Shown here: positions 792-27,276 of the stretch, piece by piece
How positions within the stretch are numbered: the stretch's first letter is position 1
Layout: every line of letters begins with the position of its first letter
DNA from: an uncultured virus (IMG/VR IMGVR_UViG_3300030098_002040)
Taxonomy: Duplodnaviria; Heunggongvirae; Uroviricota; Caudoviricetes
Length of the DNA stretch: 64,000 nucleotides
Direction: 5' to 3' (one strand)
IMG/VR virus record: IMGVR_UViG_3300030098_002040
Coordinates: 1-64,000 of that record
The notes under the pieces: generated by a model
The model's input: the letters and a program-made list of their open reading frames with translations, nothing else
Databases searched by the model: none
Told to the model about the DNA's origin: nothing
Program-made: the position numbers and the translations under genes

Positions 792-1060
792 CTAATTTTC
801 TCCATTGATAAGATCATACCCTTTGGAATAGTAGTTACGCCACCACTTTCATTAGGTCCAACAGAATCAGTTAAACTAATCCATTCATCAGTTTCTTTTA
901 ATACAAAGCCTACAGTTTTCATTGTAGGTGGTTGACGGTGAGCCCAGTCGTATGCTTCTTCATGTTCTACCCAATCAGGTCCGCCAGAAGTTTGTGCATC
1001 TTTCCATATAATATATCGAACATCAGGAGAAGAAATAATCTGATTCCAAAACGCTTCCAA
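788..1060 (-). CDS. Small phage protein (IIWKDA...W...TVGFVL...IPKG pattern)
   Basis: Part of ORF 788..1162. Start inferred as TTG at 1060, 9 nt after GGAG, overlapping the RNAP 3' end. Confidence 0.65.
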   Translation of the reverse strand: MEAFWNQIISSPDVRYIIWKDAQTSGGPDWVEHEEAYDWAHRQPPTMKTVGFVLKETDEWISLTDSVGPNESGGVTTIPKGMILSMEKIR

Positions 1061-3467
1061 TCCTAAGTTCTCCGGTTGAGGGGACTGTTGGTAATGTAAT
1101 TCCGTATCTTTCTTCGATCTGCTCTTTGAGTTCTTGGAGGAGGTTAACTTTGTGCATTTCATAAAATTGTTCCTTTGTTACTTTAATTAAGTCATCAATG
1201 AAGGGAGCATGGCAACCGTATGAATCATGTATCATACTGAAAGAAGACATTCCCATATTATACAATACAAACACAGTACAAATCAAGTGGCTTGCATCTA
1301 AAGAATGAATATAATTTGGAGGAATACCTTGCTCTGCTTTCTTAGCATGTAAGTCTCCGGCATCTTCCCAAAATATTAACTCTTTATTATTAAACAATGC
1401 AGCTAAGCTACGTCTCTTTCGTATCTTTGTGTAATGATGAACAACTTTAAATCCACTTGGTACAGTGTATGTTAAGTGTTCTCCCATTGAAGATACTATA
1501 TTAGTAATAGCTCTAAGATATTCTTTACCTCTGTTAGCTGACTCAAGTGCTGTACCAAGTCCGGCTTGAACAGCTCGTGCAAGTTCTACAATAGCACCTG
1601 CTTGTGTTTCATGAGGAACCCAGTCTACATGTCCTTCTAGTTTCATATACTTTTGGATACCATAAAAGGTTAAACCATATGCATCGCACATAGTACTTCG
1701 CTTTGTAATTTTTCGTGACAACTTACCTTGCCAGTACTCTAAAAACTTAGCACACCAAGGATTGGTTTTGTTTTCATTTAAGTAATCAGTACTAGCATCA
1801 GCTACATGTTGATATAAATCTTGAGGAGTTTCACTAGGAACTACATTAACAAGAGAAGCTAGATCATCGTCTTTCATAATAGCTGACCAATGCTGGCTTC
1901 CGTTACATGCCCCATCCATTTGTACAGGAACTTGTGTAAGCCCATCGGTTCTAAAGAAATCAAATATAGCAGCGATCCTTTGGAATGATTTGTTTTTCTT
2001 TACAGAATCATCAATCCATTCTTTATTATTATAAGGATCTTCATTAATTCTTTTTAACATATCTATATTATCATCTACCCATTGAACACGATCATCAAAG
2101 CTTACTTTGTCTACGTCAAACAAGTTAGCAATATGAACCTTTGCCCAATACTTGCCACGCTCTGTTTGTTGTACAGGATTGGCAAACATAATAAGACCTC
2201 TGTCAAAGTCAGAGCCTTGGCAACTAAGTAGTTCGCAGGTTGTATATCCTCTGCCTCTAAAGTCTAAGGTCATAGTATTATAAAAGAAACCCCAACGCAT
2301 AAGTTTATTAGCAAGCTCTAGTCTTACTAACATACGTCCACGCTTTTGTTCTTCTTTAAACCAGTTAGCCCATGCTTCTTCCCGGCGTTGACACCAGACT
2401 GCCTTTTCATTCTTTGTACCCTCTTCAGGGTAACTGTCACTAAATTCAAAGGCATCAAAAGAATATGCTGGAAGATTGCATAGTCTTGTGTTGTTGTGAA
2501 AGAAGTCAGTCATAACTTTCAGTACACGATCATTTATCTTCCACTCTGTTTTTTGCATACCATTGACAGCATCAAGAACCTTTTGACTAGGCTCGGAATG
2601 TTGTTGCTTAAGTATATGCTCTTCGGTAATATAATCAGAGCTGTATCTGTGAACAACTTCTTTACGAACCCAATGGTGTAGGTATCCTCCGCTTCGTTCT
2701 AGTGTATGATCTACAGGCGGTGATACCATAGGTCTGTATAACAATACAGTATTCTCTAAGAACTTATGTTTCTTGTGTAAATCTTTTAATACATTATCAG
2801 AAAAGGTAACGTGTAATCTTTTTCTCCAGTATTTACCGTGAGGTTTATTAACAACGTAAGTCCTGATAACAGTAGAAGCTTCTGCTATTCGTATCATGTG
2901 ATGTCCAAAGTCATCCTTCTGTTTCAAAGTCATCTTTGGAATTTGCATCATCTTCCTAGTAAAAGCAAGGCATCTTTTCTCTGTCCAGTTCTTTATAAAC
3001 TTAGATTGTTTTCTCCAATCGTCTTTAAAGTCTTTCTTAGCTTGCTGATATGATATAATATTTATAGCATCCTTTGATATAGTTCGAGCTATGTGTTGAG
3101 CTAAGGGTGGTGTTCCTTTAATATCGTCTGACATTGTACTAACTGAGTTTAACTTTAACCAATGAGTAATTACACTACGAATAGTAAGGTCTGCCATTTT
3201 AGCTGCACCTAAAGTTAACAAAGGGTATACCCAGTTCGGAGTCTTCTTGTTAGTAGATATTATATCAATCCATTCTTGGTATACTGGAGTTAACAAAGAA
3301 ACCATATTATCCAAGAGTTGTTGCTCAGGGATACCTTCGTCTCCAGCTCTATCATATTCACTCCAATATTTATTATTACCATCATATAGCATCTGCTCCT
3401 CAAGCCCAGACTGAAAAGAAATCCTACGCTCCTGTTCTTCAGGAGAGAGTGTATTCCAACTTATCAT
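1023..3467 (-). CDS. T7-like single-subunit DNA-directed RNA polymerase (RNAP-1, 814 aa)
   Basis: DFRGR, motif A DGACNGSQH, motif B RKITKRSTMCDAYG, PPNYIHSLDASH, motif C IHDSYG, C-terminal SDYFFS; AAGGAG RBS. Confidence 0.97.
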   Translation of the reverse strand: MISWNTLSPEEQERRISFQSGLEEQMLYDGNNKYWSEYDRAGDEGIPEQQLLDNMVSLLTPVYQEWIDIISTNKKTPNWVYPLLTLGAAKMADLTIRSVITHWLKLNSVSTMSDDIKGTPPLAQHIARTISKDAINIISYQQAKKDFKDDWRKQSKFIKNWTEKRCLAFTRKMMQIPKMTLKQKDDFGHHMIRIAEASTVIRTYVVNKPHGKYWRKRLHVTFSDNVLKDLHKKHKFLENTVLLYRPMVSPPVDHTLERSGGYLHHWVRKEVVHRYSSDYITEEHILKQQHSEPSQKVLDAVNGMQKTEWKINDRVLKVMTDFFHNNTRLCNLPAYSFDAFEFSDSYPEEGTKNEKAVWCQRREEAWANWFKEEQKRGRMLVRLELANKLMRWGFFYNTMTLDFRGRGYTTCELLSCQGSDFDRGLIMFANPVQQTERGKYWAKVHIANLFDVDKVSFDDRVQWVDDNIDMLKRINEDPYNNKEWIDDSVKKNKSFQRIAAIFDFFRTDGLTQVPVQMDGACNGSQHWSAIMKDDDLASLVNVVPSETPQDLYQHVADASTDYLNENKTNPWCAKFLEYWQGKLSRKITKRSTMCDAYGLTFYGIQKYMKLEGHVDWVPHETQAGAIVELARAVQAGLGTALESANRGKEYLRAITNIVSSMGEHLTYTVPSGFKVVHHYTKIRKRRSLAALFNNKELIFWEDAGDLHAKKAEQGIPPNYIHSLDASHLICTVFVLYNMGMSSFSMIHDSYGCHAPFIDDLIKVTKEQFYEMHKVNLLQELKEQIEERYGITLPTVPSTGELRIGSVLESDYFFS

Positions 3468-3486: not shown

Positions 3487-3514
3487 GGGTCTTCTACCCA
3501 TAACCCAACTATTG
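3487..3514 (-). promoter_or_regulatory. Candidate phage RNAP promoter, copy A (CAATAGTTGGGTTATGGGTAG)
   Basis: Intergenic, just upstream of the RNAP-1 RBS; near-identical copies at 10390-10418 and 27109-27135. Confidence 0.55.
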
Positions 3515-3581: not shown

Positions 3582-4610
3582 TCAAGAATATAATTCAGTA
3601 AACTTTAACGCACTCTGCATAACTTTAGAACTTAAAGTTGCAGCGTTGCCGATCAAGTTGTTGTGGATTCTAGACTCTTGTGTAGTCTGCTTACCACGAT
3701 CACCTTGACGATTCTGAATAAAGTTTGTGACTGCATTCGCAGCAAGCCATCCAGTAGATACATTAAGTTTCATATCAGATTCTTCTATGAATTTATCTTG
3801 CATCTTCATAATGTCTGCACTTGCTTTTATCTTTAGCTTATCTACTTTATCATGATTAGGTTCTTTCTTAGCCAGTTCTTTCTTTATATCTGTATTTATA
3901 ATATTTGTATAAACATTTTCAAAGAACAAACTAATTCTTTTGCTATCCCAATCTTTAGCAGTAGCCATAAACTCTACCTTTTCTCTAAAGATTTTACCGG
4001 TTTGCTTAAACGATTTGATAGCAGTTACCATTTGATCGTATACATCTTCGATAGTATTACCTCGATGACGCAAGCTAATCTTGGATACCTTGCCACTTAG
4101 GGCAGCATCTAAAGTGTTTTTGCAACACACACGGACGCTAGTATCTGTACCAATAGTACCCATAGAACCATCCTTGCCATCAAACAATGCAAAGTATGGT
4201 TGTATCTCATCATTGCCCACGGCAAATGAACTTGTTTTCAGTAGAAGATATACTTTTCTTCCACCTTGTAATGATCCCGCAGTTTCTACACGAGCAGTAT
4301 GCCCTGCTGCTTTGACTGCGATATCAAATAAATCTCTGTTTTGTACCGGACGATAGTCTTTACTTACTACACCCAACACTTCGCCAGTATCGCTTCGGAT
4401 ATTGGCAACATAATTATCTACAATAAATTGTTGTGCATCTAATGTGGAAGCTGTTAAGTAATCACTTTGTATTACTTCCCAATCCAAACCACTATGAGTT
4501 AGTGCTTCTGGTATTGTGGGATAGTGATCTATAACAGTACCAAGACCATGCCATGCTTCTTTCTTAGAATACATAGCTGTATCAGTATCATGAATTTCGT
4601 GCATTAACAT
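3582..4610 (-). CDS. DUF932 / TIGR03299-like phage-plasmid protein
   Basis: AWHGLG, LDWEV, VLGVVSKDYRPVQN, ETAGSLQGGRKVY and RVCCKNTL are typical of this family. Confidence 0.85.
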   Translation of the reverse strand: MLMHEIHDTDTAMYSKKEAWHGLGTVIDHYPTIPEALTHSGLDWEVIQSDYLTASTLDAQQFIVDNYVANIRSDTGEVLGVVSKDYRPVQNRDLFDIAVKAAGHTARVETAGSLQGGRKVYLLLKTSSFAVGNDEIQPYFALFDGKDGSMGTIGTDTSVRVCCKNTLDAALSGKVSKISLRHRGNTIEDVYDQMVTAIKSFKQTGKIFREKVEFMATAKDWDSKRISLFFENVYTNIINTDIKKELAKKEPNHDKVDKLKIKASADIMKMQDKFIEESDMKLNVSTGWLAANAVTNFIQNRQGDRGKQTTQESRIHNNLIGNAATLSSKVMQSALKFTELYS

Positions 4611-4827
4611 ACTCCTCTAGTAATTCAATTGATCTATCCGAAAGATCGTATACACAACAATCTTTTTGAATAGATGCATATAAACTTGTAGCGATAACAT
4701 TTAATGGAAACCATTCTTCTTGATCAAGAACCCAAGGTTCAGTTTCACCCCAGATACCATATTGATCAATAACTTTATCGCTTCTCAACGATATAGCTAG
4801 ATTATCTCCAATATTTTTCACGCTCAA
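4588..4827 (-). CDS. Hypothetical protein (79 aa)
   Basis: ORF track; overlaps neighbouring genes in operon fashion. Confidence 0.5.
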   Translation of the reverse strand: MSVKNIGDNLAISLRSDKVIDQYGIWGETEPWVLDQEEWFPLNVIATSLYASIQKDCCVYDLSDRSIELLEEYVNARNS

Positions 4828-4960
4828 TCCTTTCCAGTTCTTGACGAACAGTTTCTTTACTCTCTACAACTATTTTATGAATCATAGATTGCTCAAGTCG
4901 TATGAGCTTATCATTCATTTCTCTTCTTAGTTCTCTTATCATTTCTAAGTCACTCGACAT
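4802..4960 (-). CDS. Small coiled-coil hypothetical protein (52 aa, MSSDLEMIRELRREM...)
   Basis: Manual translation; GAGGAGG RBS upstream. Confidence 0.55.
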   Translation of the reverse strand: MSSDLEMIRELRREMNDKLIRLEQSMIHKIVVESKETVRQELERIEREKYWR

Positions 4961-5075
4961 CAAGCTCTACCTCCTCAAGTTCTAGCATAAGATCTTCATT
5001 TATAAATTCTTCGCATTGAACTTCGCATAGGAAATCATCTAGCTTAAAGCCATCAACAACTTTAACAGTACGCAT
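4950..5075 (-). CDS. Small acidic hypothetical protein (41 aa, MRTVKVVDGFKLDDFLCEVQCEEF...)
   Basis: Manual translation; GGAGG RBS upstream. Confidence 0.5.
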   Translation of the reverse strand: MRTVKVVDGFKLDDFLCEVQCEEFINEDLMLELEEVELDVE

Positions 5076-5280
5076 TGTACATCCTCCAAATAAGTAAACC
5101 GATACCGCATATTATACCACAACGAATGGCACAACGCAACNNNNNNNNNNCGTTTAGTTTAATTCTTTCTTTTAATATTCTATGCTCAGTCATAAGCATA
5201 CATAAGAAAGAACTAGCCTCTAACTCATCGTATTCTGGCAAGTCAATAATAACTTGGTATTTTGTTTTTCCTTTAACCAT
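5062..5280 (-). CDS. Hypothetical protein spanning an assembly gap (may be two genes)
   Basis: ORF track; interrupted by Ns. Confidence 0.35.
   Translation of the reverse strand: MVKGKTKYQVIIDLPEYDELEASSFLCMLMTEHRILKERIKLNXXXXLRCAIRCGIICGIGLLIWRMYNAYC
5141..5150. other. Assembly gap (10 N)
   Basis: Run of N in the sequence. Confidence 1.
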
Positions 5281-6573: not shown

Positions 6574-6593
6574 TAGTATATCCCTCCATATAT

Positions 6594-6622
6594 ATTATAC
6601 CATAAAAAGATTAGAATGTCAA
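6594..6622 (-). promoter_or_regulatory. Consensus sigma70-type promoter
   Basis: TTGACA-17 nt-TATAAT with extended -10 TG, immediately upstream of the RBS of 6208..6573. Confidence 0.9.
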
Positions 6623-6623
6623 C

Positions 6624-6776: not shown

Positions 6777-7049
6777 CTAGGAATTATGCAACCGTGACTG
6801 TAGTTCTTGCTCTGCTCGTTCCTTCGTTTCAGGTCGAGCATGTTCCATGTTCAAGATATTCTGTAGCTGTCCTTCGTCCAGCTTACTGTAATCTTTGGTA
6901 GTAACCTCATCCAGAGTGAGTCCACGCTCCTCCAATACCGTCATGGCATTTAGCCCAGCTTCGCCGGACTTTGGATTCTTGGCGATGCCACGGAGAACAA
7001 TGTCTCGGTAGCCCTTAAATTTATTCAATTGTTTCTCTAGTCTAGTCAT
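6777..7049 (-). CDS. Hypothetical protein (90 aa)
   Basis: ORF track; GAGGAGG RBS, ATGA overlap. Confidence 0.7.
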   Translation of the reverse strand: MTRLEKQLNKFKGYRDIVLRGIAKNPKSGEAGLNAMTVLEERGLTLDEVTTKDYSKLDEGQLQNILNMEHARPETKERAEQELQSRLHNS

Positions 7050-7315
7050 ACGAGTTCCTCCTCCATTTCTTGGATAGCTTCTGGTAACCAGTGGAACTTG
7101 TTACGATAGCTCTCTGGTCTTGTTTCTTCAAACGAGTTAACGATGGATATCGCAGCCTTCGGCTCGTCAACGAGCAGATGGTTTTTGATATAACTAACGG
7201 CTTCGCCAATGCAGTTAAAGACATCATCAGGACAGTCGAGTCCATAGCAGCCTTCTATATCTGAGTACACAGCGATAGCATATGGGTTTTGGATATCTAT
7301 GATAATACGATTCAT
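7046..7315 (-). CDS. Hypothetical protein (89 aa)
   Basis: ORF track; AAGGAGG RBS. Confidence 0.7.
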   Translation of the reverse strand: MNRIIIDIQNPYAIAVYSDIEGCYGLDCPDDVFNCIGEAVSYIKNHLLVDEPKAAISIVNSFEETRPESYRNKFHWLPEAIQEMEEELV

Positions 7316-7369: not shown

Positions 7370-7680
7370 AGCCGATCACAAGGAGCTGACATTGGTTTTC
7401 CATTGATGGTTGGGTTCCCAACAGCTCCGTTGGTCGGCTTTGGGCAAATGTGAGAAAAAAGCAGGTGTCCCCATAAACACGGGGTTCCCCGCTAGGGGGG
7501 CTAGAATAGCCGGAGAGCGAAGCGTTCCGCAGACGTTCCGAAGGGTCGTTCCGACCGGCGAAGCCGTTACACGAAGAATGAGGGTTGCCGAAGGCATTCC
7601 CCGCAGCCCGAAGGGAAGCATGCACACCGAAAGGTGAGGACGAAGGACTTCCCGAAGGGAGAGATGACTATATTATATAG
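7370..7680 (+). repeat. GC-rich non-coding region with an array of GAA-loop DNA mini-hairpins
   Basis: GGCTA-GAA-TAGCC, GC-GAA-GC, CC-GAA-GG, CGGC-GAA-GCCG, TGCC-GAA-GGCA, CCC-GAA-GGG, CACC-GAAA-GGTG and TCCC-GAA-GGGA, plus a branched stem at 7370-7439. Confidence 0.8.
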
Positions 7681-7687
7681 CCATTAA

Positions 7688-8137
7688 TTACGCCCGTTGA
7701 TAACGAGCGTCACCACAAACTCCATTACGGAACTTCATGGTTCGGGAACGACAGTGAGCTTTGTTGAAGTCTCTCCAGAAATACGAGACAGTATCTGAAA
7801 AGTTTAGACCTTCTACCTCAAGATAGTGACTGTCGATAATATCCTCGTTAAAGATTTCATCATACCAGCACAACATACGGTAGTTGCCATTGTCCAACAA
7901 AGTCCAATAGATAGCATCAGTCTCAAAATACCGAAGACCGTCACTAACAGCATGGAAGGTGTATCCACGCCCTTGACATTCTTTAATATATCTTTTTAAT
8001 TCACCAAGGCGAACAGTAAACTCAGGCTTGCCATAGGCAAAGACCTTTGCTGTGTCTGCTCTGTTGGTAAAATGAATAGAGACCATGCCACGGCTCCCCT
8101 TGCGGAGAACCACATTCTTAAAGCTTTGCTTACGCAT
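7688..8137 (-). CDS. Hypothetical protein (149 aa)
   Basis: ORF 7688..8224; start moved to MRKQSF because of an AAGGAG RBS. Confidence 0.7.
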   Translation of the reverse strand: MRKQSFKNVVLRKGSRGMVSIHFTNRADTAKVFAYGKPEFTVRLGELKRYIKECQGRGYTFHAVSDGLRYFETDAIYWTLLDNGNYRMLCWYDEIFNEDIIDSHYLEVEGLNFSDTVSYFWRDFNKAHCRSRTMKFRNGVCGDARYQRA

Positions 8138-8235
8138 AACTTTCTCCTTTGTCCGTAGACAAGAAACTAGGAAACCTACAGACGTTCTGTAGGGAAAAAC
8201 TCTTGTCCCTCGGTAGAGGAACAAGAGCGATGGTA

Positions 8236-10035
8236 TCAGCCAATAGCTGATGGCAGCTTATCTAGCAATGCTGCAATATCAAACTCTTCAACGCCAGCTC
8301 TTTGCGGTAGACGCTTATTGTGAGCTTTGCAGAAGTCACCTAGATAATCATGGTTAGTGAACATCCAGATCAAAACCTCTTTGAAGATTTGACGTACAGT
8401 ATCTACATAGGCTACAGGGACACCAAAAGAATCGTGGATAGTCGCAATAGGAATACCCAGCTTCTGACATTTGTTGACTACAAGAGTAACAATGACAGCA
8501 TCTATAAGGTGTGTAAAACATGGAGCACACGCAGCTATCCTGCCCTGACCAGTAGTCATAGGACAAAGATTCTTACGAATCCTCTTGCGTTCATCATCCA
8601 TTGTAAATGAAATATCAATATAGTCCTTGATAGACTCACTCCCTCTCTTGTGAGGAAATGGATGTATAATAATATTATTATCAAGTGGATGCACAAAAGA
8701 AAAGCAAGAATCTGTTTTCTTGTACCAACTACTAGCAGCACCTTTTAACGTACCAAGGTAATCCTTGATAGACGGAAAGCGATTGAACATAGCTTGCTGT
8801 AATGACTTAGCCAAATAAGACAGTTGCCTTATCTGATTAGGAACAGACAAGTCTGCCAAGTGTGACTTAAGACAAGACGCTGGAGATAGTGTGACTTCCT
8901 CAAGAGGAATACGACCCTTTTCGATTTGAGTAGCCAACCCATCGGTTGACTTCGTATCGAGTAGAGACATGTCACACTCCTGTCCAAAGACAAGGATAGT
9001 TCCGATAGCACAAGCTAAAGCATCAGACGCTGTACCATACATGGTTTGAATCCCAGTTGGCTTAGCGATTTCTTTTCTTAAGATCTTAGTATCAATCTCA
9101 GAAAGTGCTTTAGACCAAGAAGAGCCTTCATTTAGAAACTGATCAACAATAGCTAAGTAGAAGTCTTCTTCTAGTATGGTAGTTAGCAAGTTCTTGTCTC
9201 GCATCATAAGAGACACTAAGAGTGGACCAGATGATTTAGTATCTAGTTGCACAATGTAATGCTCTGCAAATGTTTGATCAGTACAAGCTAACCATGCACT
9301 ATATGCTTTCCAAGATTCAGGTACATTATGAGTCGTGAATGAGGAAAAGTACTTACCGTACTCTTCTTTTAAGAAGTCACGAGCTCTATCCCATTGCTCA
9401 TCTGTAAAAGGATAAGCATCTGCAAAGCAGACGAGAGATCGATTAAGATCATCACCTTGATGAGATAATATACCAGAGCCATTGTAGTATCTACCACGCC
9501 AGTCGAGAAAGACTGTGTTGTAGAATCTATCCCAGCTTTCAATCCTTTCGAGTTCCCTAAAGACAGGTTCAGTTTGATCAGACATTACCTTTTCTTTATT
9601 AAGATAAAGCATATGTTCGATCTCAGGATGAATGTCAAACGGTGTATTGCCGATATACGACAGGGCATCCTGCACTCTCTTAGGTTGAGGCACATTGCCA
9701 TTGCGACTCACCACAGTACGGTGTGTCCCTGCAATATAAGGACGAGACAATACATATCCTTTAAGCCTTGTAGGCTCAGGTAGCATTGTGTCGCCCGCTA
9801 CGATAGCATTCTCGATAGACCGTAAATCTGTAAGATCTACATTCCAACCATAGACTGCTACAGCAATCTGCTCTCGCATCTGGTCAACGACCTGATGGAT
9901 AGAGCGGTCTGCTCTTCGTAGTTTATTGCGAATGGTAATGAACTTCTCAAGACCAAAAGTACTGAGAGGTTCCCGGTATCGCTTGGGTAGCTGTTGGATA
10001 GCTCCAAGTTGTTTAGATAGTGGGCTTATAGCCAT
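8236..10035 (-). CDS. Compact, divergent T7-family single-subunit RNA polymerase (RNAP-2, ~599 aa)
   Basis: FLDWRGRYY, motif A LDTKSSG, motif B RKEIAKPTGIQTMYG, APCFTHLIDA, motif C IHDSFG. Start MAISP follows an AAGGAG RBS. Confidence 0.9.
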   Translation of the reverse strand: MAISPLSKQLGAIQQLPKRYREPLSTFGLEKFITIRNKLRRADRSIHQVVDQMREQIAVAVYGWNVDLTDLRSIENAIVAGDTMLPEPTRLKGYVLSRPYIAGTHRTVVSRNGNVPQPKRVQDALSYIGNTPFDIHPEIEHMLYLNKEKVMSDQTEPVFRELERIESWDRFYNTVFLDWRGRYYNGSGILSHQGDDLNRSLVCFADAYPFTDEQWDRARDFLKEEYGKYFSSFTTHNVPESWKAYSAWLACTDQTFAEHYIVQLDTKSSGPLLVSLMMRDKNLLTTILEEDFYLAIVDQFLNEGSSWSKALSEIDTKILRKEIAKPTGIQTMYGTASDALACAIGTILVFGQECDMSLLDTKSTDGLATQIEKGRIPLEEVTLSPASCLKSHLADLSVPNQIRQLSYLAKSLQQAMFNRFPSIKDYLGTLKGAASSWYKKTDSCFSFVHPLDNNIIIHPFPHKRGSESIKDYIDISFTMDDERKRIRKNLCPMTTGQGRIAACAPCFTHLIDAVIVTLVVNKCQKLGIPIATIHDSFGVPVAYVDTVRQIFKEVLIWMFTNHDYLGDFCKAHNKRLPQRAGVEEFDIAALLDKLPSAIG

Positions 10036-10039
10036 ACCT

Positions 10040-10389
10040 AACTCCTTCCGCCAATAGGCAAAAGAAACCAAAGAAACTTCTGGAAACGCTCCAGAAGTAA
10101 AAAGTGCTGGAAGCAATAACTCCTCCAGTACCGTCTCCCGCCATCTTCTCTTCCATGTCTTACGCACAGTAAGACGGCACGGCGAGGATGAGCAGTACGC
10201 CCATCTTTGGTAGCTCACGGCTAAGTAAGCTACCTAAGACAAGCACAGCTTAGGGGGGTATAGGGGGACATTCCGTAATCCCACTAATACAACCCTAGCT
10301 GTATATTCGTGACCCCTAGTCGATTTTCCTAAGTATACCTAGTATATAATATATATAATATATACCTATAGATAAACTATAGTTAACTA
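10040..10389. other. Non-coding hairpin-rich region, probable genome end or terminal-repeat junction
   Basis: Several inverted repeats, GGGGGGTATAGGGGG, TATATAA repeats and repeated CCTA(A)G words. Lies between the last structural gene and the first early gene. Confidence 0.45.
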
Positions 10390-10418
10390 GGGTCTACCTA
10401 CCCTTAACCCAACTATTG
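10390..10418 (-). promoter_or_regulatory. Candidate phage RNAP promoter, copy B (CAATAGTTGGGTTAAGGGTAG)
   Basis: 20/21 identity to copy A; overlaps the stop codon of the giant gene. Confidence 0.55.
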
Positions 10419-13400
10419 CAACTCTTCGGGTAAATCAGGAGTTCTTGGCTTTTGTATTTCTTCTAAAGGATCAACCGAAGGAGCAACATCGACTCGACCC
10501 CTCTCAGGTTGTAGGGTTTCTGTTGCCGGTGCTGGAGCTTGTGTTGGCTCTTGCATTGGTTTTCCTCTAGGAATATTATATTGTTCAATCATATGAGATA
10601 AGAATGCTTGAGGATACAATTCTCTTATTATATTATTAAGATTCTTTTCTTCTTTAGTAAAGAACATATTATTGTTATTTCCAGTATCTATAACAAAGTC
10701 CTCGTTGAATCCTTCACGTCTAGGACCTTGTTGCTGATTACGTCTTAACTGATCTACAGACTTTTGTTTACCTAGAGTATGAGAAAGAATAGCTCTAGTA
10801 AATGGGTTAGCAAATGCCTGACCTATAACTGGATGAGGTGCTAAGGTTAAAAGACGTGCATAGTTTCCAAAGTCTTTCCCATCAGGATTTGTTATATTCT
10901 TAAGAGATTCAAGCTGTCCACTTAGTAATGAGAACCCAACAGGAGCTAAGGGTCTTCCCACTCCTTTGGCTAAGTTGCCTTCTAGAAATCCTTTAAAGGC
11001 TGATACAATAGCTTCTCCTGCAAATCCCATAGAAGGGTTCCTAGATAATATATAAGATATTTCTTTAGCAGGATTTTCTGAAAATCTTCGTCTTAGAGTT
11101 TCAGCACTTACTCCAGCAGCTAACATAATAATAATCATATAAACAGCTTCTTGTAACATAAACCTTATGGTTCTTCCTAAGAAAGCTGCGGGACCATATC
11201 TTGGTAAATCTCTAAAAATTCTTTGTGAAGCGTAAACATTAGGATAAGACTTATAGTGTCTCATTAATCTAAATAGAGGAACATCAGTTGTATCTAAATC
11301 CATAGCGGTAGGATTGATAATATTTAAATGTACCACGGCATCTTCCCAATTCTTTAATCTTCTCATGGCATCATTAAGTCTTGATCTTCCGCTTCTATCT
11401 TGTTCTGAAATATAAGATTTTAAAGATTTGCCAAAAGAATATACTCCATATACCCTAGAAGATTTATCTAATATTATATCTATATCGTTTAAGATAGCAA
11501 TATCTAAAAGACCCATTTGTGCCATTTGATAGACTGCTTCTACTCGACCGTGAGAACTACCAAGGGTTCTAGAAACAATTTCTTTTAATTGTTTTCGATT
11601 TTCTAATACATCCCTATTTTTATTTATTTCTTCAACAAGAGTTTTAAATCTACCATCTTCAATAATTTCCTGTAGAAATTTTCTATAAGATAAAGTAGAT
11701 ACCATTCTAAGGTCAGTATTAATAGCTCCGTTTACAGAGTTTGATAAAATTCTAGATTTTCTTAAAAATCTTCTTGTAGAACTTAACTCGTGATCAGGAG
11801 CCTCATCATCAAACAAAAGACTTCTATCCATTTCATACCTATTATGTTTTAGATACTTAGCGTAATAAGCCATACCAGATGCTAGTTCTTTTTGTTTTAT
11901 TCTTCCATTCTTTGTAGCATGGCTTGCCCCTAATGTTATACTATCTATAAGAGTTGTAAAGAAGTTTGAGAATCCTCTTGGACCTCCAAACATCAAAGAG
12001 GTAGTATTAACTATACCTTCTACTACAGGAGTAGCTACAGTTAAGTTAGGTCCTAATAAAGTAGAAGTAAAATCATTTATTGTATCAACAGCTGGATTTA
12101 CATTGTTTACAGCTCTTGTTGCAACTCCCCCTGTTATCTGTAGTTTTCTTCTTAATATTTGTATATCTTCTAAAAGCCTAGATCTAACAGGTCTTTGTAT
12201 TCCTCCAAATAAACTCTTTACAGAATTATCTATAATATTTAAGCCAGATAAATCTGTATTATTTTCTATAACATTTTCAAATATAGTTAAAAATAAATCT
12301 GCATTTATTGTAGAATCAGTAAATTGTTTTAATGTTGAAACAGTACTTGCATTCCACACAGGACCTCGAACCATACCATTTACAATATCGGATATAGAAT
12401 TATTAAATAAACCTTTAGTATTAGGGTTAGTTAGTAAATCATAAGAACTTGGTATACCTACTATTTTTTGTGGTAAGAAAGAAGTACTTCCTATTCTATT
12501 CATAAGTAAATAAAGTTTGTAATCGATAAGATTTAAAACATCATTAGAGTTTATTAAATATTGTTTATGGTTTGGTCTAACAAGATTATTATCTCCAATT
12601 ACTTTAGCTAAATAACTTCCAGATAAAGCTTGAAATTTACTTACAAGATTTGTATGCGACTCTTTTATTCTTCTATTATATGTATTAACTATAACGTCAT
12701 CAGCAGTAGGTATAATTTGTTTTAAAGTTTTAGTTCCACTAGAAGCTTCTTCATACATACCTTCAACCATTTGATGTCTTAATAAGTTAATCTCTAATCC
12801 TTCCCTTGCAATATAATCCCTTTTAGATTCTGTATCAGTTTTTATTTGTTGCTTTAAAGTATCTGCTCTTTCGTCTTCGCTATTTAAAATACGTTGATCA
12901 ATATATTTTTTAACATTATCAGGAGTTAAATCCCAAGATTTTAAAAACTTTGAATCAACTATTCCATCAGTTACATTACTTAAATCCGGAAGAATATTAG
13001 ACATATACAAACCAATTGGATCAACAACTCCTTTATTAGCGGATTTTAATTCTAGTTCACTTTTAATCATATCTTTCAACGCATCTCGTTTAGATAATAC
13101 TTCATCTAAAACTTTATTATTTTCCATATTTTTAATTTTTCTTTTTAAAGTTAATATAATATTTCTATTAGGATCTGTAAATTCTGGCTCAGATAAAACA
13201 CCAGCATCAAACATAATATCAGTCATTTGTTGTAAAAACTCTTTATATTTTTTTGCGTACTGTTTAATTAAATTATAATCAGGATCAGTTTCTGAAATGT
13301 CCTTTTCGTTAACTATAAATCGAATTGCCCCTTCTTTTATTCGTTCAAATCTATCTGTGTCCAATTTTCCTTCTTCAGTAAATCCTTTATCGTAATCTGC

Positions 13401-16400
13401 TGCTTCTTGTTCTAAAATCATTAATTCATTATAATTGTGTTCAAAGCTTTGAATACCTTCAGGATTTTGTAAATTACCAGTAGTGTTTTCTAATCCACTA
13501 GCAATCATTCTAGAAAATAAAACAATTGGAATAGCATTATTTAAATAAGTTCTATCTGACTGAGTAGTATTAAAACTAAAGATACCATTAGTAGCAAGTT
13601 TATTTAAAGTTAAATATATACTTGGAAAATAAGCTAAGTATTGTTCTGTTCCTTCTAAAACATATTCTCCTCTATGCTCTCCCATTTTTTCAAATGAATC
13701 TGCTAAAAATGTTTTTAAAATATCTAAATCACCTTGTTCATTATTATTTAATAAACTAGTAATATAATTTCTAGGTATTAATAAATCGTCTTTAATTTTA
13801 CCATGTCTAGAATGAGTAATTTCTCTTTTTGAATTATTAATTATTTTGCGATTATTTAAAACAGTTCTTCTATCTTGACCAAACATATTTTTATAATCTA
13901 TTTCAGATATTTGTTTTTCAATATGTTCTTTTTCTTTTAACTTATTAACTAATTCAGCTCTCTTTTTATCTTTTTCTTTTAGATCTTTTGCATTGTTCAT
14001 ATCATTTTCTATATCTCTTAACTCACGCTCTATATTCTCAAGGTCATCTATTAACGTCTCAAAAGAAGTACCAGTAGTTTCTGTTTTAGTAATATTATCT
14101 ATTTGTTCTTTTGTCAGAGGAGAACTATCTCTAAATTGAAATAAAGAAGGAGATTGATCACCTAATGTAAGAGATTTTGGATTTAAAAAGTTATACATAT
14201 TCTCTGCATTAGGATGTCCAGTAGAAACTTCAGAGGGGGTTCTAGAAGAAATAGCCCTATGTATTCCTGCTCGTTGATTAAACCCGTAACTGTTTTCTAC
14301 AATTTTTTCCATCATCTCATATGCTTTTGGTGTTCTTGTTTTAAATCTAAATAATGCATCAGTTATTGTTTGTAAGTATCTTCTAACTGAACGAACAATT
14401 TTACCTACCATTGATTCAACATGTTTATCAGGAACTATAATAGATTTATCATGAGTTACATCTAACATAACTCTATGAGACACATACAAAGCAGCCCATT
14501 CTTCTGGATTATTTTGATAGAAAGCAACAAGAGATTGTAATTGTTCTCCACTATACTTAGAGTACTTAGGAAGAGAAGTTACAAAGTCTCGTATAGAAAC
14601 TTGTCCTTCATAAGATTTAATCCACTCAACAACACTTATCCAATGTGCTTCGTCTTTTCTAATAAATCTTTCTACTCCCATATGTCCAATGGTTTCGTGA
14701 AGAATAATTTCTACCAATTCTGTATTATTATCAACATTAGTAGGATCAACAATTATAGAAAACTTGTCTTTCTTAACACCAAAAACTCCAGACACTCTAT
14801 CCTTAGTTCCTATTTTATACAACGGTTGAGTTGCAATTTCTAAATCTATATCGTTAAAGAACTCAGGATTCATTCTTGCTAAATGAGCAAAAGTTATTCT
14901 TAACATTTCTTTTTGTTCATTGTTTAAATTAGAACTTTCTATAGTTTTATTTAATTCTAAAGCAGTATCATTTGATTTAAATGTTTTATTAAATTGTTTA
15001 AAATCTTTTAAAGACCACAAATCAACATCGTCATCTAAACCTCTTGATAAATCTAAAGGATTATAAATACCATGACTATCTAGTCCCTCTTGTATAGCTG
15101 CTGACAAAGCTAGTTTAGCAGCAATTAATTGAGAAGGACTTGGATCTTTAACACCAACAATTTGTTCTAAGGCTGTTTCAAATCCAACTAAATTTTCTAA
15201 CTCATTAACTTCTTCGCCTATTAATTTAGAACGAACTTCAGAAGCACTGTTTCTATCTAACCATTGCCTAGCACTTCTAAATAATATTTGTGCTTCATTT
15301 AAAGCTGACTCTTGAAAATCTATCTCTGTATTTAATTCTTTATAAAATTTCCCAGCCTTGCGTGTGCGTGATTTAACGATAAGCCCTCTTAATTCGCTTG
15401 CAGTTAAATCTTTATTTAAAATATGCAATGCCCAAGTAGGAAACATATTACTATCTACAGTTAATAAGTCACCTTCAATATCATATTCAGTTCCGTTTAA
15501 ATCTTCTAATACTTTTTTAAATAACTCTACTGTAATAGCCCCATCTTCTTCTGTATATTCTTTAATTCGTTTATTTATTTCTTCTTTACTTGTTATCTTA
15601 TTTAATTCTTCTACTGTATTTTTAACATCTTCATTATCTTTCATATATGTAGGAACATGCTCAGAATTATTTATATCTATTTCTCCTTTTAATCTAGTTG
15701 TTAAAAGATGAACTACCCATCCCCCTACTTCTGTTTTTTCTTTTTTAAGAATATTTTTTGCGTAATCATTTAACTTTCCTTTATCGCTTTTATTTGCTTT
15801 CATGTTCTTAAAGATAGTCCTAAGATCAAAGCTTCTCATTGCTATTCGCAAAGCTAAATCATATTCACCGGTAAGGTTGCCTAATTGTACCCAATCAAAG
15901 TGATTACCATTAAAAGTAACAACCTTATATCCTTCCTTTTGTGCTGCTTCAACTCTTTTTAAAAATGCTTTTAAGTTTTTACCATCAGACATTTTATTTT
16001 CTTTTCGATCAGAGTAATGTTCAGCAATGCTATATACCTTAGTTATTTTACCATCTATAACCCAATCAGTTTCAATATCTATAGCTAATATTTTATTATT
16101 TTTTAACCATCCATCATAATCTAATAGTTCAGGAATATTATCTACACCCTTTAATCCTAATTCTTTTAAAATAGATTTAAAATTATCTACATTAGTTCTT
16201 TGTAAAACTCCTATATTATTAGAATCACTTATATGTTTTTCTAGATGCTTAGTCATTTTATTTAAAGGATTAAAATTAAGTTTATTAATTTGTTCATTTA
16301 ATTTATTTACATTTGGTTCTATTTCTGTAAATGTTTTATAATCTATATTTAAAACAGACGCAGCAAATATTTTAGCATCTTGGAAATTTAATCCATGACT

Positions 16401-19400
16401 ATCTTGAACTTTTAAAGCTAGAGATAATACTCTATTAGTATCATTTGGATTACTAGTTATTTCATCTAATACTCTAGATAATCTTGTATTGCCTGATTTA
16501 GTAGCCGATGTTTTCATAATATCAATAGCTGAATAATAAGATTTTGCATAAGCAGTATCAAAATCCATTCCTTTTAATCCACCTAATTTATCTATATCAA
16601 TAGTTTTATGCCGTTCGTTTGGATCAAATGAACTACTTCTTCTATCGTCTGTAAGAGTATAAGAATCTAATTCAGAGTCTTCCATAATTTCAAATGCTTT
16701 TAAAAGTATTTCATTTTTCTTTCTAAGATCAGTTTGAAACCCAGCTTCTAAACTTTCATGCAATGAACGCTCTGTACCTAAATATGGTTTTTGAGTAATA
16801 GACCTATCTTCAATTTGTCGCAAAAGAGTTGACTTAGTATTAATTAACATCTCTTGCAGCCCTTCACGAGTAAGATGATAGGTAGGTGCTCCAATAACTT
16901 TACCATGTAGCAATGGGTATATACTGCCCCACATTCTTTTAATTTTGCCTTCATGCGTAGGATCAAGAACCATTCTTCCTCTTGTTTCAGAATCAGGATC
17001 TAAATAAATTGTAAAGTTTCTATGATGCTGAATTGAAGCTTCTTCAATTGCTTTAAAGAATATATCAGATGCCATGTTTCTAATAACTGGATCAGGATCA
17101 TTGTACATTCTTTCTAAATCCCACCAAGCTAATAACTGTCCTTCTGGTAATTTACTTTCGAGTTCACGAAGATAAGCTCCAATTTCACTATCTTCTTTTT
17201 TCTTAGCTTGTATATATTCATTTGTTTTAGATATAAGGAAATGCTCCATCATAGCCACGCCAGTTTCTAAATGGTGAACAGCTACCGGTCCTTCTACAGT
17301 TGCTACGACTTCTTTCTTTTTAAAAGCTGTGTCTTCATCTAAAGCTACAAGATGTCTTGGGGCAGCAGTAAAAACTCTTGGATCTCCTTTTTCAGATCGT
17401 TGAGATATTACCTTAGCAAGTTGAAGATAAGACATAGCATCGGTATCTATTGCATCTCCTAGTTCTGGTAAAAATACATCTAACTCTCTAGGATCATAAG
17501 TAGTTGTTTTTACTTCATGAGCAATAGACCTCTGTGTGAATAGTTTATCATACCAAGTCATTCTTATTTCTCTACTTCTTGCTGTATAATCTGCTTCGCT
17601 TGTAGTTCTTAATCCTTTTACAATTCCTCTAGTTTGACGTAAAGTGTCTGACATAATTCTATCATGATCCCATAGAATCCATAATCTAGCCCATTGTTTA
17701 TTTTTTATTTCAGTAAAATATCCTCGTTCCATAGCCCAAGGAAGTACAGACTCTTTAAAGTTTCGCATTGCTTTGTAAACTTTTTGTTCATTAGATTCGT
17801 CACTAAAAACATTACTAATAGGCTCTGTAGCAGGAGGACTAGCTACAGGAAGTGTATTAGTATCGAAAGGATGTGATCCAGTTAAAAGACCTGATACAAA
17901 TAAATTTAAATTATCATCAAGTTTATTATCAGCAAGTTTATTAAAATTATCTATTCTCTTATCTTGTTCTTTAACTTTATTTTCAAAGAATTTTTTTCTT
18001 AAGAACAAAGATCCTTTGTCTTGCATAAGATTTCCGGGAGATCCCATTGTAGGTCTAAATGAAGAGATACCAGCCGGAACTTTTGTTGTAATCTCAACCT
18101 GATCTTTTACAGTTCTTCTTGACCATAATGGTTTATTATTTTCATCAAACCTACCGCCAAATTCATTCTTAGTAAATTGATCTCTACCAATTTCATTTGA
18201 TAGTTCACTAGGATTATTCCAAAAATTATTTGATCGTGCTCTTGCTTGAACAGTATGATCTGATTCAGCTTGCCATTGTGCAAAGTAATCAGCCATAGTA
18301 TATTCTGGTATAGCTAACATAGCAGGTTCTAATTGAGTTGAAACTCTAAGAGCTAAATCTATAGCAATAAGTTTATTTACATAATCTCGTTTATTTCCAA
18401 CTCCTTCAGGAAATCTATTACCTAATGTTTGCCAAATACCGTATGGTTTTTCTTCGCTTCTATAGCTACCAAAGGGACTTGTATAAGGACTCCTAGCTCC
18501 AGCAAAAGGAAGCTGCAATCGTCCTGCTGCTGTATCAATCCCAAACTCTTGGAATACATGGTATTGCAATAGTAGCCCACCCATTAGCCAATTTTCTTCA
18601 ACATGAGCAGGATCTAATCCTGAAGCTTCCATAATTTTTTTAGTCATCTCATCGTATTCAATTCTAATTGGCTGTGCATTCTTTTCATTTAAAACTCTAA
18701 GTAATGGCATTTCTTTCCATGCTTCATTAAACCCTGTTAATAATCTATATATTTCAGAATAATGTTTATTAAATATTTCTGGATTATCTAAATCAGTTTC
18801 AGTTAAAGGTCTATCAACAGAAGGATGTCTTTGTGATTTTAAATATTCTTTAACATTATTAATTCTTTCTTGAGTATCTTTTCTAATAATTTCTTTAAGC
18901 CTTGCTTTTTCTTCAGGTCTTCCTTGACTTAAATAATCTGACATTTCTTCTACATAGTTCTCATGAGCTTGAATTAAATCTCTTCTTTTTTTACCAGCCT
19001 CTTTCATATCATCACCATAGACAGCTAACCAGTCTGCTTTAACTAATTCTTCTTGTTTTGCATAATTTTCTAAAATATTAATTAGCTCTACTCTTTCAGT
19101 AGCAGTCATACCTAATCCTTCAAGAATTGTATTAGTTGCTCCTTGAACTTCATTAATCATAGTTGCTCTTAATGCAGCCCCGCCTTTATTTAAAAAGGTT
19201 GCCCATACTTTAATATCTTTTAGAGTAATGCCGTTAGCTTCAGCTTGTTTTGCCCAATCAGCGTTTTGTTGCCAGTCTTTAACTAATGCATTTGCTGTTC
19301 CTTCTAAACCTGCCCAATATAATTGAACCATAGTAGGCTTCTTCATAAACTCTCTAAATAATTTAACTCTATCTGTAGTCTGGTCGTTATTTTTTAAATC

Positions 19401-22400
19401 TTCTAATATACCTTTAAAATCAAATAACTCGTTTAGTTTTTGTAAAGACTCCAATGATTCTGGGTTCATATCTATATGCGATTCAATATTTTGTAGTGCT
19501 GACTCTAATACATACTTGCCAACATTTAAATAAACATCATCTTGAGTATACCCTAATTTATCATATACTAAATTATCTAGAAATTCTTGTATTTCTTTAT
19601 TTGATCTTTCGCCTGAGATTAACATAGATACAGTAATATGTTGACCAGAAAAACTATGATCCCTAACTCTTTGATATGAAAATATATTATCTATTCCTAT
19701 TGTTTGTGCTTTTTCTTGTCCTAATTCTAAAGACCTTTTAGCAAAACCTTCATAGTTTTTATTCATAAATTCCCAAGCAACGTGTTGAAAGAATCCAGCA
19801 AAAGTTAACATCCCAGATGCCATACCCGGCGTAGCTCCTTCTGCTATTCTTTTATTTAATCTACCTCCCACACTCTCTTCATCAAATGACTCATCTCTTT
19901 TTATAAATAAAGGCTGAGGATTATATTTTTCATCAGCTTTTGCTTTTTCATCTTTAGTTAATTCTGAAACAGATTTACCTAACTCTTCTGCATATTTTTC
20001 TCTAGCTTCTACTTGAGTTTGAAATCCAGTAATAATTCCATCAACATAAAATCTACCATCATGAATTAAATTTAACCCTATAACAGGGAAATCTAACATA
20101 ACTTCCATTACCATTTTTTGCCATTGTTCAAAATTAGTAATAGTTTCTCCCGGAGTTCTATTAGATATCTGAGGAAGAAAATCAAATCCTAATTTTATTT
20201 TACCTACAATTTCTCTACTAGGAATATAATATTCTCTGAAAGCTTCTTCTTTTTGTTTAGCCGTTAACTCTTTATCTTTATCTAGCTTTCTATCTTTTAT
20301 ATATTCTTCTATAGCTCCTTCTTTAGTAGTTTTTCTTTTTAATAAATCATTTATAAAATCAGTTACCTCATCAGGTGTCATTGCTTCAATTGTTTTTAAA
20401 GAGTGTTTCATTCTATGAGTAACTAAGGCTTCTTCATAGTTTCGTCTTAGATTTTTTGTAGAGAAAGGCATATCATGTCTAACACTTTTAGGTTGTAGTT
20501 TAGAACTAATATTCGGCTGTCCTCTGTCTACAAGATCTTGAGGGCTATCAGGATCAGTTTGATTTTCAATATTTGTACTGATATTTCTTCTATAAGTTGA
20601 TACTTCATTTCTTCTAAAGATTGCATCAGACAATGCTCTGCCAGCCTCTTCGGCGGGCATCCAATCTAAAGTACCATCCCCCATATCTGTTTCATTTTTA
20701 ATTCCATAATAAAGTTTTGTAGTTTCTAATAATATATCAATAACTCTATCAAGACTTTGTGTTGTTTCATTACTATCAATGATTTCTATATACAACTCTT
20801 TAATTCTAGAGTCAATAGTTTTAGGACGAGTAGTAACATAGTCTTCGTATATATTAACAAAAGTTTCTAATAATCTTTGTTTATTAATTCCTCTTGCTTG
20901 CTCTATAAAATTATCTTTAAATATTTCTGTATATTCTTTTTCTGTGACTGATCTATTAGCGTCAACATCTGTATCTCTATTAAATCCTGCTCGCAATCTA
21001 TTCTCTTTAGGTATTGTTTTAACATAATCTAATAGACCTTGATGTAATTCTTCAGCAAATTTTAATTGTCTTCTATAGTTAGTGGTGCTTTTATCTAAAG
21101 ATTCTACTCTACCTTTAGCATCAACTACTGCTCTTTCAAGTTTGCTTTCTACTCTAGCAGAATAATTATCTCCTAGTTTTTTAGATATTGATAATAAAAC
21201 AGTAGTAAGTTCTTCAACATCAACAATAACATCCATATAATCGCCCTCATGGATTGTGTTATTATCTGTTTTTTCTCTTCTATATAATTTATCTGGTGCT
21301 AATCGTCCATCTTTACTTGCTTCAATAGCTCCTGCTTGTTCAAGAATTACCGGTCTAATTCCTTCTAATGCCTTTGATCCTTCTGGTCCTAGCTCTGAAC
21401 CCATATGAAATATAGGGTGATTAAAATTTATATTTCCTAATCCTGCTTGGTGTAACATAGCAATAACTAAACCAAGATGAGAATATTGTCCGTTTTGATT
21501 TTTTAAGGTTTGTAATAGACGAGCAGCATCTAAGAATCTTTCTGCATATTCTCCAATAGTATCTTCAGTAATAACAAAAGGAATACTATCTTGTGGCGGT
21601 ACTGGGCGTGAAGTCTCTGCTTCTGTTACTGATCTTTTTAATAAAGGCTGATCATTTGCAGTAAACTCACCAATGCTTACATAGTCGTGGACAAGCTCAT
21701 TAAAAGCATTCATAGCTTCGACATCAATTCCAGATAATCTAGCTATCATCATATTTATTCCTCTATGTCTATTAGAGGTTTCGTTTCTCCACATTGCAAA
21801 ATCTGTTATCATATCTCTAGCAGTATTCATATCAACAGTATCTTCCATTTTTAAATCAGGATACTTTTCTTTTAAAAAACTGTCAATATAATTAAAACTT
21901 ATATAGCTATCTTTAACATATGTTTTCCAAGTATATAAGTCTATAGTTTTTAATTTCTTTTTTCTAGCATCATCATTTATTTGGACTTTGCTTTGTTGTG
22001 CTGATCGTACAACATATCTATGATATGCAAATTGTTGAAGACCAGATGAGAAAAGATCTTCTTTTGGAATAAGCCTAGAAGCTGCTACTTCTTTATTTAA
22101 AGACAATCTATTTATATTTTTTCTTAGTTCACTAATTTCTTTGAACGGTCCTAATTTTTCTAATTCTTTCTCTTTCTTTTGGATTTGATTTAAAAGTTTA
22201 TTAAATTCTTTTCTTGTTTTAAAATATTGTTCTAAATTTTCTTTTAATTCTTTTTTATTTTTTATTAATTCTTTCTTTTTATCTTCTAATATTTTTTTAC
22301 TTTGATTACTTGGACTATCTATAGCTTTAATAAAATCTTCTATAACTTGAGATAATTTACTATTTTTTATTTCAGTATTAAATTCTTTACTTTCAATTGA

Positions 22401-27135: not shown

Positions 27136-27276
27136 ATTCCAATTCCTATGAAACCAGAAATAAGCACCAAGCATTAAAAAAGCTATGCCGGAACTATCAT
27201 TACCTGCTTGAAAAGCACAGGCTGCTTGAAAGCATAATATCCCCCCTGAAATCTTAAGCAGTAACATTCTTTTCAT
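27130..27276 (-). CDS. Small hydrophobic protein (48 aa, MKRMLLLKISGGILCFQAACAF...)
   Basis: Manual translation; TAATG coupling to the upstream gene. Confidence 0.45.
   Translation of the reverse strand: MKRMLLLKISGGILCFQAACAFQAGNDSSGIAFLMLGAYFWFHRNWNK

Follow-up and report, generated by a model that had tools for sequence, protein, structure and literature searches.

A cluster of short C-GAA-G DNA hairpins at the inferred chromosome end of an uncultured marine T7-like phage

What is the function of a dense row of tiny hairpins on the template strand of a phage genome, and where in the chromosome does such a row lie? The question is raised by the virus record IMGVR_UViG_3300030098_002040, which is 64,002 nt in length. 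The window analysed here (64,000 nt) is nearly the whole of this record, and its genes lie on the minus strand. The source is an uncultured marine T7-like phage with a single-subunit RNA polymerase, a T7-type portal and genes on one strand. The T7-type RNA polymerase (1023-3467) and the portal have only distant cultured relatives (28% and 34%). The names terminase, primase-helicase and capsid were assigned by eye. In the order of transcription, a giant protein is followed by a second RNA polymerase, a terminator, a 149-aa ORF, the hairpin array, two small ORFs, a sigma-70 promoter and the early genes (Table 1).

All nine hairpin elements and both lone CGAAG cores (7572 and 7641) of the initial annotation were found in place upon inspection of the sequence. 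Only six of these elements (7517, 7538, 7556, 7586, 7607 and 7650) are C:G-closed GNA triloops with at least two pairs, and they have stems of 2-4 bp. The loop of the 7499 hairpin is closed by A:T, and the hairpins at 7487 and 7625 have loops of four bases. Seen from the coding strand, the array appears as CTTCG repeats, with CCTTCGG in four of them.

The enrichment of the motif was borne out by counting. There are 84 copies of CGAAG in the window where 48 would be expected. The plus strand carries 28 of them, eight of which lie within 7518-7657. The array has six C:G-closed triloops per 200 nt on the plus strand, against at most one (plus) or two (minus) elsewhere in the window. The region 7468-7666 (61% GC), which was picked post hoc after the array had been seen, was compared with 10,000 dinucleotide shuffles. 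The eight CGAAG copies (mean of 0.82 in shuffles) and the six hairpins (mean of 0.21) were reached by none of them. When the cores were held fixed and the flanks shuffled, the 13 extra stem pairs observed compared with a mean of 2.8, and 8 of 20,000 shuffles were as high. The complementarity of the stems therefore does not simply follow from the repetition of the core.

Two other sources of the motif were tried and rejected. The first is a translated ORF. The cores occur in all three codon phases, the overlapping frames of 75-85 aa have no ribosome-binding site, and these frames are not kept in L002, a related lineage. The second is a structured RNA with UUCG tetraloops on the minus strand. 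As had been claimed earlier, the triloop register on the plus strand pairs better, with summed pairs of 21 vs 6 in the window and 34 vs 7 in L002. A search of the array region against Rfam returned zero family matches, and no RNA holder of the array sequence was found. The array is a genuine, non-coding cluster of tiny DNA hairpins. Folding of the whole region, which had been put forward as a check, was not better than shuffles on either strand with DNA or RNA parameters (z of -0.64, 0.39, -0.88 and -0.53). According to the available text of one review, structure-prediction parameters miss the stability of mini-hairpins (PMC13037366).

Table 1. Coordinates of the array and of the features that surround it in the window.
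Feature	Position	Strand	Remarks
Perfect sigma-70 promoter (12/12, extended -10)	6594..6622	-	Heads the early genes
Two small ORFs (89 and 90 aa)	6777..7315	-	Strong ribosome-binding sites; no Pfam or PHROG family
Long imperfect hairpin, conserved in L002	7371..7438	-	Lies just beyond the repeat and precedes the first early ORF; possibly RNase III site-like
Concatemer-junction-like motif YCTGCTTWTTT	7455..7466	- (coding strand)	Single copy in the window; compared with T7, T3, K11, KP34 and HTVC019P
Inferred right physical end of the chromosome and terminal repeat	7468..7468	.	Contig starts at 7468 (run X20) and 7467 (run X10)
Terminal 26 bp before the inferred end	7468..7493	-	About 85% identity to L002; conservation ends at 7493
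CGAAG hairpin array	7487..7662	+ (template)	8 CGAAG cores, 6 of them C:G-closed GAA-triloop mini-hairpins; three other short hairpins (7487, 7499, 7625)
ORF of ~149 aa (178 aa from a farther TTG)	7688..8137	-	No family; inside the inferred repeat
Intrinsic terminator-like hairpin	8199..8228	-	After the second RNA polymerase gene
Second single-subunit RNA polymerase (643 aa)	8236..10167	-	PHROG 414, E 8e-30; Pfam RNA_pol, E 3e-12; catalytic motifs kept in alignment
Paired C-runs, starting at 10267	10253..10292	-	Position-26 rule of T7-like repeats would place the left end near 10292
Family-conserved motif	10311..10323	-	Precedes the C-run by 55-59 nt; flanks the inferred left cut on its outer side
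Candidate double-stranded phage promoter (21 nt)	10398..10418; second copy 3494-3514	-	Upstream of the inferred repeat by ~110-125 nt, in the manner of T7 phiOR
Predicted T7-type polymerase fingers fold, ~aa 2158-2282 of the 5199-aa giant protein	19167..19541	-	Predicted structure

The initial annotation described the hairpins and overlooked where they lie, within a terminal repeat and at the inferred end of the chromosome. Very probably, the array forms the last ~200 bp of the chromosome by the packaging cut. The contigs of four runs (X1, X9, X10 and X20) were examined after the junction motif had been picked. A 10,986-nt contig of run X20 starts at 7468 and is preceded by a 23-nt loose end, which we take to be an amplification adapter, and a contig of run X10 starts at 7467. 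In X1 and X9, contigs run across the site, which is expected of a terminal repeat. The T7 rule predicts an end at 7467, and the chance of a random end in such a 4-nt window is ~1/1,000 within the stretch examined. The end at 7468 comes from a single adapter-capped record, which a random shear point could also produce.

The junction motif lies 20 nt beyond the array and two bases from 7468. A scan of 86 loci found it in 11 distinct relatives, in the matching region and on the matching strand. Of 19 near-complete family genomes, 11 carry a similar pattern, with 16 matches compared with three for the reversed control, some of them off-junction. The pattern is missing from the other 8 of the 19 and from the loci L004, L005, L133, L138, L183 and L205. 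The repeats of T7 and T3 stop directly before ATCTGTT, and the motif of this type in K11 is annotated as the concatemeric junction. The motif of the window differs from the T7-like ATCTGTT at two of seven positions. The KP34 repeat is followed by the near-identical CCTTGCTTATTT, and HTVC019P has TCTGTTTTTTT near position 160. The repeat lengths of SP6, Syn5 and HTVC019P are general background, as their records carry no repeat annotation.

The left end of the repeat is marked by two further signals, the paired C-runs and the motif upstream of them. In 9 of 10 cultured T7-like phages, the C-run starts at repeat position 25-29 (position 26 in six, and 14 in the remaining phage, LUZ100). The phage phiIBB-PF7A was omitted from this count; its annotated repeat shows no end signals. 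The spacing from motif to C-run is fixed at 55-59 nt in nine loci (eight distinct contigs) and in the window, where the left motif, the C-run pair and the junction motif are present in one copy each. Taken together, these signals make it likely that the left end lies near 10292 and that a terminal repeat of ~2.8 kb (2,825 bp) carries the array as its last 200 bp. The inferred repeat has a GC content of 44%, compared with 34% elsewhere. No molecule end was seen at the left side in the contigs. It was also noted that the motif at 10311-10323 is conserved in the nine loci and in three further genomes, and it is a candidate terminase or left-cut signal.

Contig depth, which is not copy number, is 20.7 inside the repeat and 15.6 outside in run X1, with 20.3 expected if 2.8 kb are doubled. 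In X9 this contig depth leans toward doubling over 2.8 kb, and in X10 it is 26.5 inside the repeat and 27.8, 27 and 17.5 outside. Two shorter repeats are disfavoured. One would run from 7468 to ~7666, starting at TCTC, and has the family left-end signals at 10267-10323 against it. The other, of 26-29 bp, derives from an overlap of the X10 contig, and the junction is spanned in X1, X9 and most complete relatives.

Among the relatives, the end signals enclose 1.5-4.2 kb in seven loci (L186 without the upstream motif), ~3.4 kb in G019 and ~4.0 kb in G015. In G006 they enclose ~190 bp, a T7-sized stretch without genes that serves as a natural control. This suggests that T7-like repeats range from ~190 bp to 4.2 kb in the group, several of them with a second RNA polymerase. 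The candidate double-stranded promoter has counterparts in L002, and weaker copies were noted near 27137 and 56763. The copy at 3494-3514 heads the main RNA polymerase gene, which suggests self-amplified expression.

The distribution of the array was followed in viral stretches encoding a relative of the main polymerase, of which 155 were found and 80 kept. The array was found in two lineages only, the window type and the L002 type. Among 44 loci with upstream sequence, many of which are fragments, L002 alone carries it. The L002 array has 11 CGAAG cores and 9 hairpins on the same strand and in the same slot as in the window; its stems are mostly different, and it includes three tandem AACC-GAA-GGTT units. 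Conservation of the hairpins beyond the window was confirmed at the level of the motif class in this one related lineage, where the stems have changed. Narrow DNA pattern searches returned the window type and the L002 type only (one viral and five metagenome matches), and two of the matches are identical to the window across the array and hence not independent. Three CCGAAGG in a row are present in at least 119 stretches in a scan of the collection. The second polymerases of the two array-bearing lineages are 53-55% identical.

Other short repeats occupy the array slot in L006, L186 and L203. Such differing repeats in several relatives are as expected for a fast-evolving protein-binding signal. 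At L008 3297-3360, there are seven CGAAG with short stems on the coding strand, opposite to that of the window, ~200-270 nt before the junction motif. L005 has a 1.4-kb non-coding tract (3800-5200) with a duplicated 30-nt unit containing a palindrome, and without a match to the junction motif.

The same variation could have arisen by near-neutral expansion of a short repeat, through slippage in the recombination-prone end of the terminal repeat. The three tandem units of L002 would fit slippage, as would the variation among relatives in repeat unit and even in strand (seven CGAAG on the coding strand in L008). Such an origin is nevertheless very improbable, for the stems vary from unit to unit yet remain complementary (8/20,000 and 0/20,000 flank shuffles), and the array persists in two lineages with second polymerases as far apart as stated above.

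The order of signals in the window is that of the T7-like phages T7, T3, K11, KP34 and phiKMV: an upstream promoter candidate, a C-run near the start of the repeat, heptamer-like repeats, a template-strand C-GAA-G hairpin and a pause-like motif directly after the right end, which in the window is the inferred one. The repeats of T7, T3 and phiKMV have one template-strand C-GAA-G hairpin each (3 of 11 examined), and the T7 core, AACC-GAA-GGTT, is the unit that L002 repeats three times. Heptamers of the form CCT(T/A)N(A/G)G, of which CCTTCGG is one, number 8 in the repeat of T7, 7 in T3 and 5 in K11, with 4 in the window and 6 in L002. A literature search for the T7 heptamer listed no paper containing it.

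There are also differences. Six to nine hairpins lie at the right tip here, whereas T7-type repeats have one. This single hairpin is 66-79 nt from the left end in T7, T3 and phiKMV, compared with ~2.6 kb here, and its position nearer the left end weakens strict homology. The inferred repeat of 2.8 kb carries genes and the second polymerase, in contrast to repeats of 160-414 bp in T7-like phages; that of phiIBB-PF7A has 985 bp and two genes. The array thus appears to be a lineage-specific expansion of short repeats and of the single C-GAA-G hairpin, a known but little-discussed ingredient of T7-type repeats. The short repeats and hairpins of T7-type terminal repeats are not known to have an established function.

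The array may well act as a lineage-specific, multi-copy signal for end maturation and packaging, the favoured reading, held with middling confidence. The available text on T7 describes maturation and packaging as starting with the pausing of the polymerase at the junction (PMC3276506), where the paused polymerase engages the terminase (PMC3276506; 10.1101/2021.01.11.426313). In the present phage, the phage RNA polymerase would cross the concatemer junction and pause at the 7466-7455 motif. By analogy with T7, the paused complex would recruit the terminase, resulting in a cut at 7468/7467. The template strand would then fold into GAA mini-hairpins, either in the wake of the paused polymerase or at the end as it unwinds while the repeat is duplicated. 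These hairpins would mark the last 200 bp for the terminase or a partner, and would resist SSB and exonucleases. GNA mini-hairpins are described as exonuclease-resistant and as poor substrates for SSB binding in the available text of PMC13037366. Both the formation of the hairpins in vivo and a binding partner are what we infer.

Some observations weigh against this end-maturation signal. The terminator at 8228-8199 stands between the candidate promoter and the junction motif, and for hairpins to extrude from duplex DNA, stems of 2-4 bp are short. The class II signal of T7 is strictly sequence-specific, as far as the available text of 10.1101/2021.01.11.426313 describes it, and pausing at the variant motif of this phage is therefore an assumption.

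A different role would involve the additional polymerases of the phage. The second polymerase is the first large gene of the inferred repeat and lies in a block of higher GC (8236-10292). It is divergent across the group (18-55% identity). The gene lies within the inferred repeat in the window, L002, L173, G019 and G015, and after it in L142, L146, L158 and G006; it is therefore always among the first genes to enter. The giant protein (10413-26012) carries a T7-type polymerase fingers fold, as predicted by a domain model of low confidence (mean pLDDT of 48), and any polymerase activity is putative. The fold aligns with T7 RNAP (VIA-align Z of 9.4, rmsd of 2.5, 100 residues) and with N4 mini-vRNAP (Z of 5.2). 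Invariants like those of motifs A and B are present in the domain, motif C was not located, and weak Pfam and ESM leads point to a polymerase-like domain. No match to the domain was obtained by sequence or profile in the PDB, two polymerase profiles or cultured phages, or by Foldseek. Around aa 3310-3430, the protein also matches PF13482 (E 1e-6), an RNase H-like exonuclease domain. Its relatives of 4,000-5,300 aa, with the polymerase-like domain, occur in 11 of 19 family genomes.

The initial annotation had compared the array with the promoters of phage N4. The likeness lies in the C:G-closed GNA triloop on the template strand and in the three single-subunit polymerase-like proteins, one of them in a giant protein. 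In the available text of PMC4496689, N4 promoters are template-strand hairpins with stems of 5-7 bp, an A-spacer and a fixed start. Two of them in a retrieved N4 stretch have stems of 5 and 7 bp, C at +1 and the spacers ATAA and AAAA. This anatomy is absent from the array. Its stems are 1-4 bp and none of eight reaches 5 bp (1 of 11 in L002), C at +1, 11 nt from the loop centre, occurs in 2 of 8 units (1 of 11 in L002), and no spacer in the array has three or more A. Moreover, N4 has single sites ahead of genes, whereas the array is a dense cluster without a fixed +1 C, in a phage with all genes on one strand and a T7-type portal and RNA polymerase. Neither did the array prove to be linked to the polymerase-like domain, which is present in 11 of 19 family genomes, with the array in two lineages only. 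What stands of the promoter idea is the template-strand GAA triloops and the predicted fingers fold; the N4 anatomy and the co-occurrence with the domain do not.

The main rival explanation retains loading or start sites in a geometry other than that of N4, at which either the second RNA polymerase or the polymerase-like domain of the giant protein would act. The hairpins of the left copy would drive transcription of the 89-/90-aa ORFs and draw the genome in up to the first sigma-70 promoter, which lies ~3.7 kb from the left end. No sigma-70 promoter was found between the array and these two ORFs, and an RNase III-like hairpin lies in between. The second polymerase is encoded just upstream, the giant protein has its predicted fingers fold, and the template-strand polarity is as described for N4 in the available text of PMC4496689. 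However, the N4 stem length, A-spacer and +1 C are lacking, and unlike the array, both the second polymerase and the domain of the giant protein occur family-wide. A virion polymerase would need to start upstream of the second polymerase gene, and no C-GNA-G hairpin with three or more pairs is present there. A separate double-stranded promoter candidate is also present. Loading sites of this kind are possible, if on balance unlikely.

The inferred long repeat also recalls phage T5, whose gene-carrying repeat closes with a non-coding tract in which repeats and palindromes abound, according to the available text of 10.1101/866236. On this model, the repeat would enter first and express the second polymerase, and transfer would halt at the array until released by a phage protein. 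The shared layout is the evidence for such an injection stop. The T5 tract is, however, >1 kb in length and conserved across relatives (same source, available text), whereas the array is a 200-bp, lineage-specific feature of two lineages in a T7-like genome, and the repeat of G006 is short and without genes. A T5-like stop is a most improbable function. A broader entry programme, like those of N4 and T5, is rather doubtful. Here, the kilobase-long repeat would be a pre-early cassette with its own RNA polymerase, and a third polymerase would reside in the virion protein of 4,000-5,300 aa. The array would be a single-strand loading ramp that relays transcription-driven entry to the first host promoter, with its right-end copy marking the packaging cut.

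The hairpins could instead act on single strands during replication, as SSB-excluding and nuclease-resistant primase sites or as a strand shield in replication, concatemer formation or duplication of the repeat. In the available text of PMC13037366, CCGAAGG is the mini-hairpin of the plasmid ssiA primase site, and origins of the G4 type carry related hairpins that bind SSB poorly. GCGAAGC and CCGAAGG units occur both in these systems and in the array, and a repeat of several kb would need copying at every junction. At the G4 and ssiA sites, one hairpin forms part of a larger structure on an ssDNA replicon, in contrast to a cluster at the end of a dsDNA phage. The array is missing from relatives whose inferred repeats are just as long, no inversion of cumulative GC skew is seen at it, and the phage has its own primase-helicase-like gene, named by eye. 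A replication signal is regarded as quite unlikely.

With six to nine copies in which the loop is fixed and the stems change, it is directly testable with terminase and RNA polymerase whether structure or sequence is recognised. The three end signals permit the prediction of chromosome ends across a large uncultured group. No description of a group of T7-like phages that combine long repeats with two or three polymerases was found in the open-access text searched, and one may exist in tables or subscription journals.

Some further features of the surrounding region were noted. Conservation of the 7371-7438 hairpin was judged from two sequences, in which one pair is changed on both sides. Two short hairpins at 8138-8200 separate the terminator from the 149-aa ORF, for which no obvious promoter is seen. 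The segment 6671-6777, between the 90-aa ORF and the sigma-70 promoter, is hypervariable in runs X9 and X10, and the promoter block at 6588-6623 also matches contigs of differing sequence context. A single match to a metagenome-assembled genome contig (50% identity) was not counted as evidence of a host. Elsewhere in the window, 38489-44617 encodes a tail-tube-like protein of 2042 aa with a long cysteine-rich insert.
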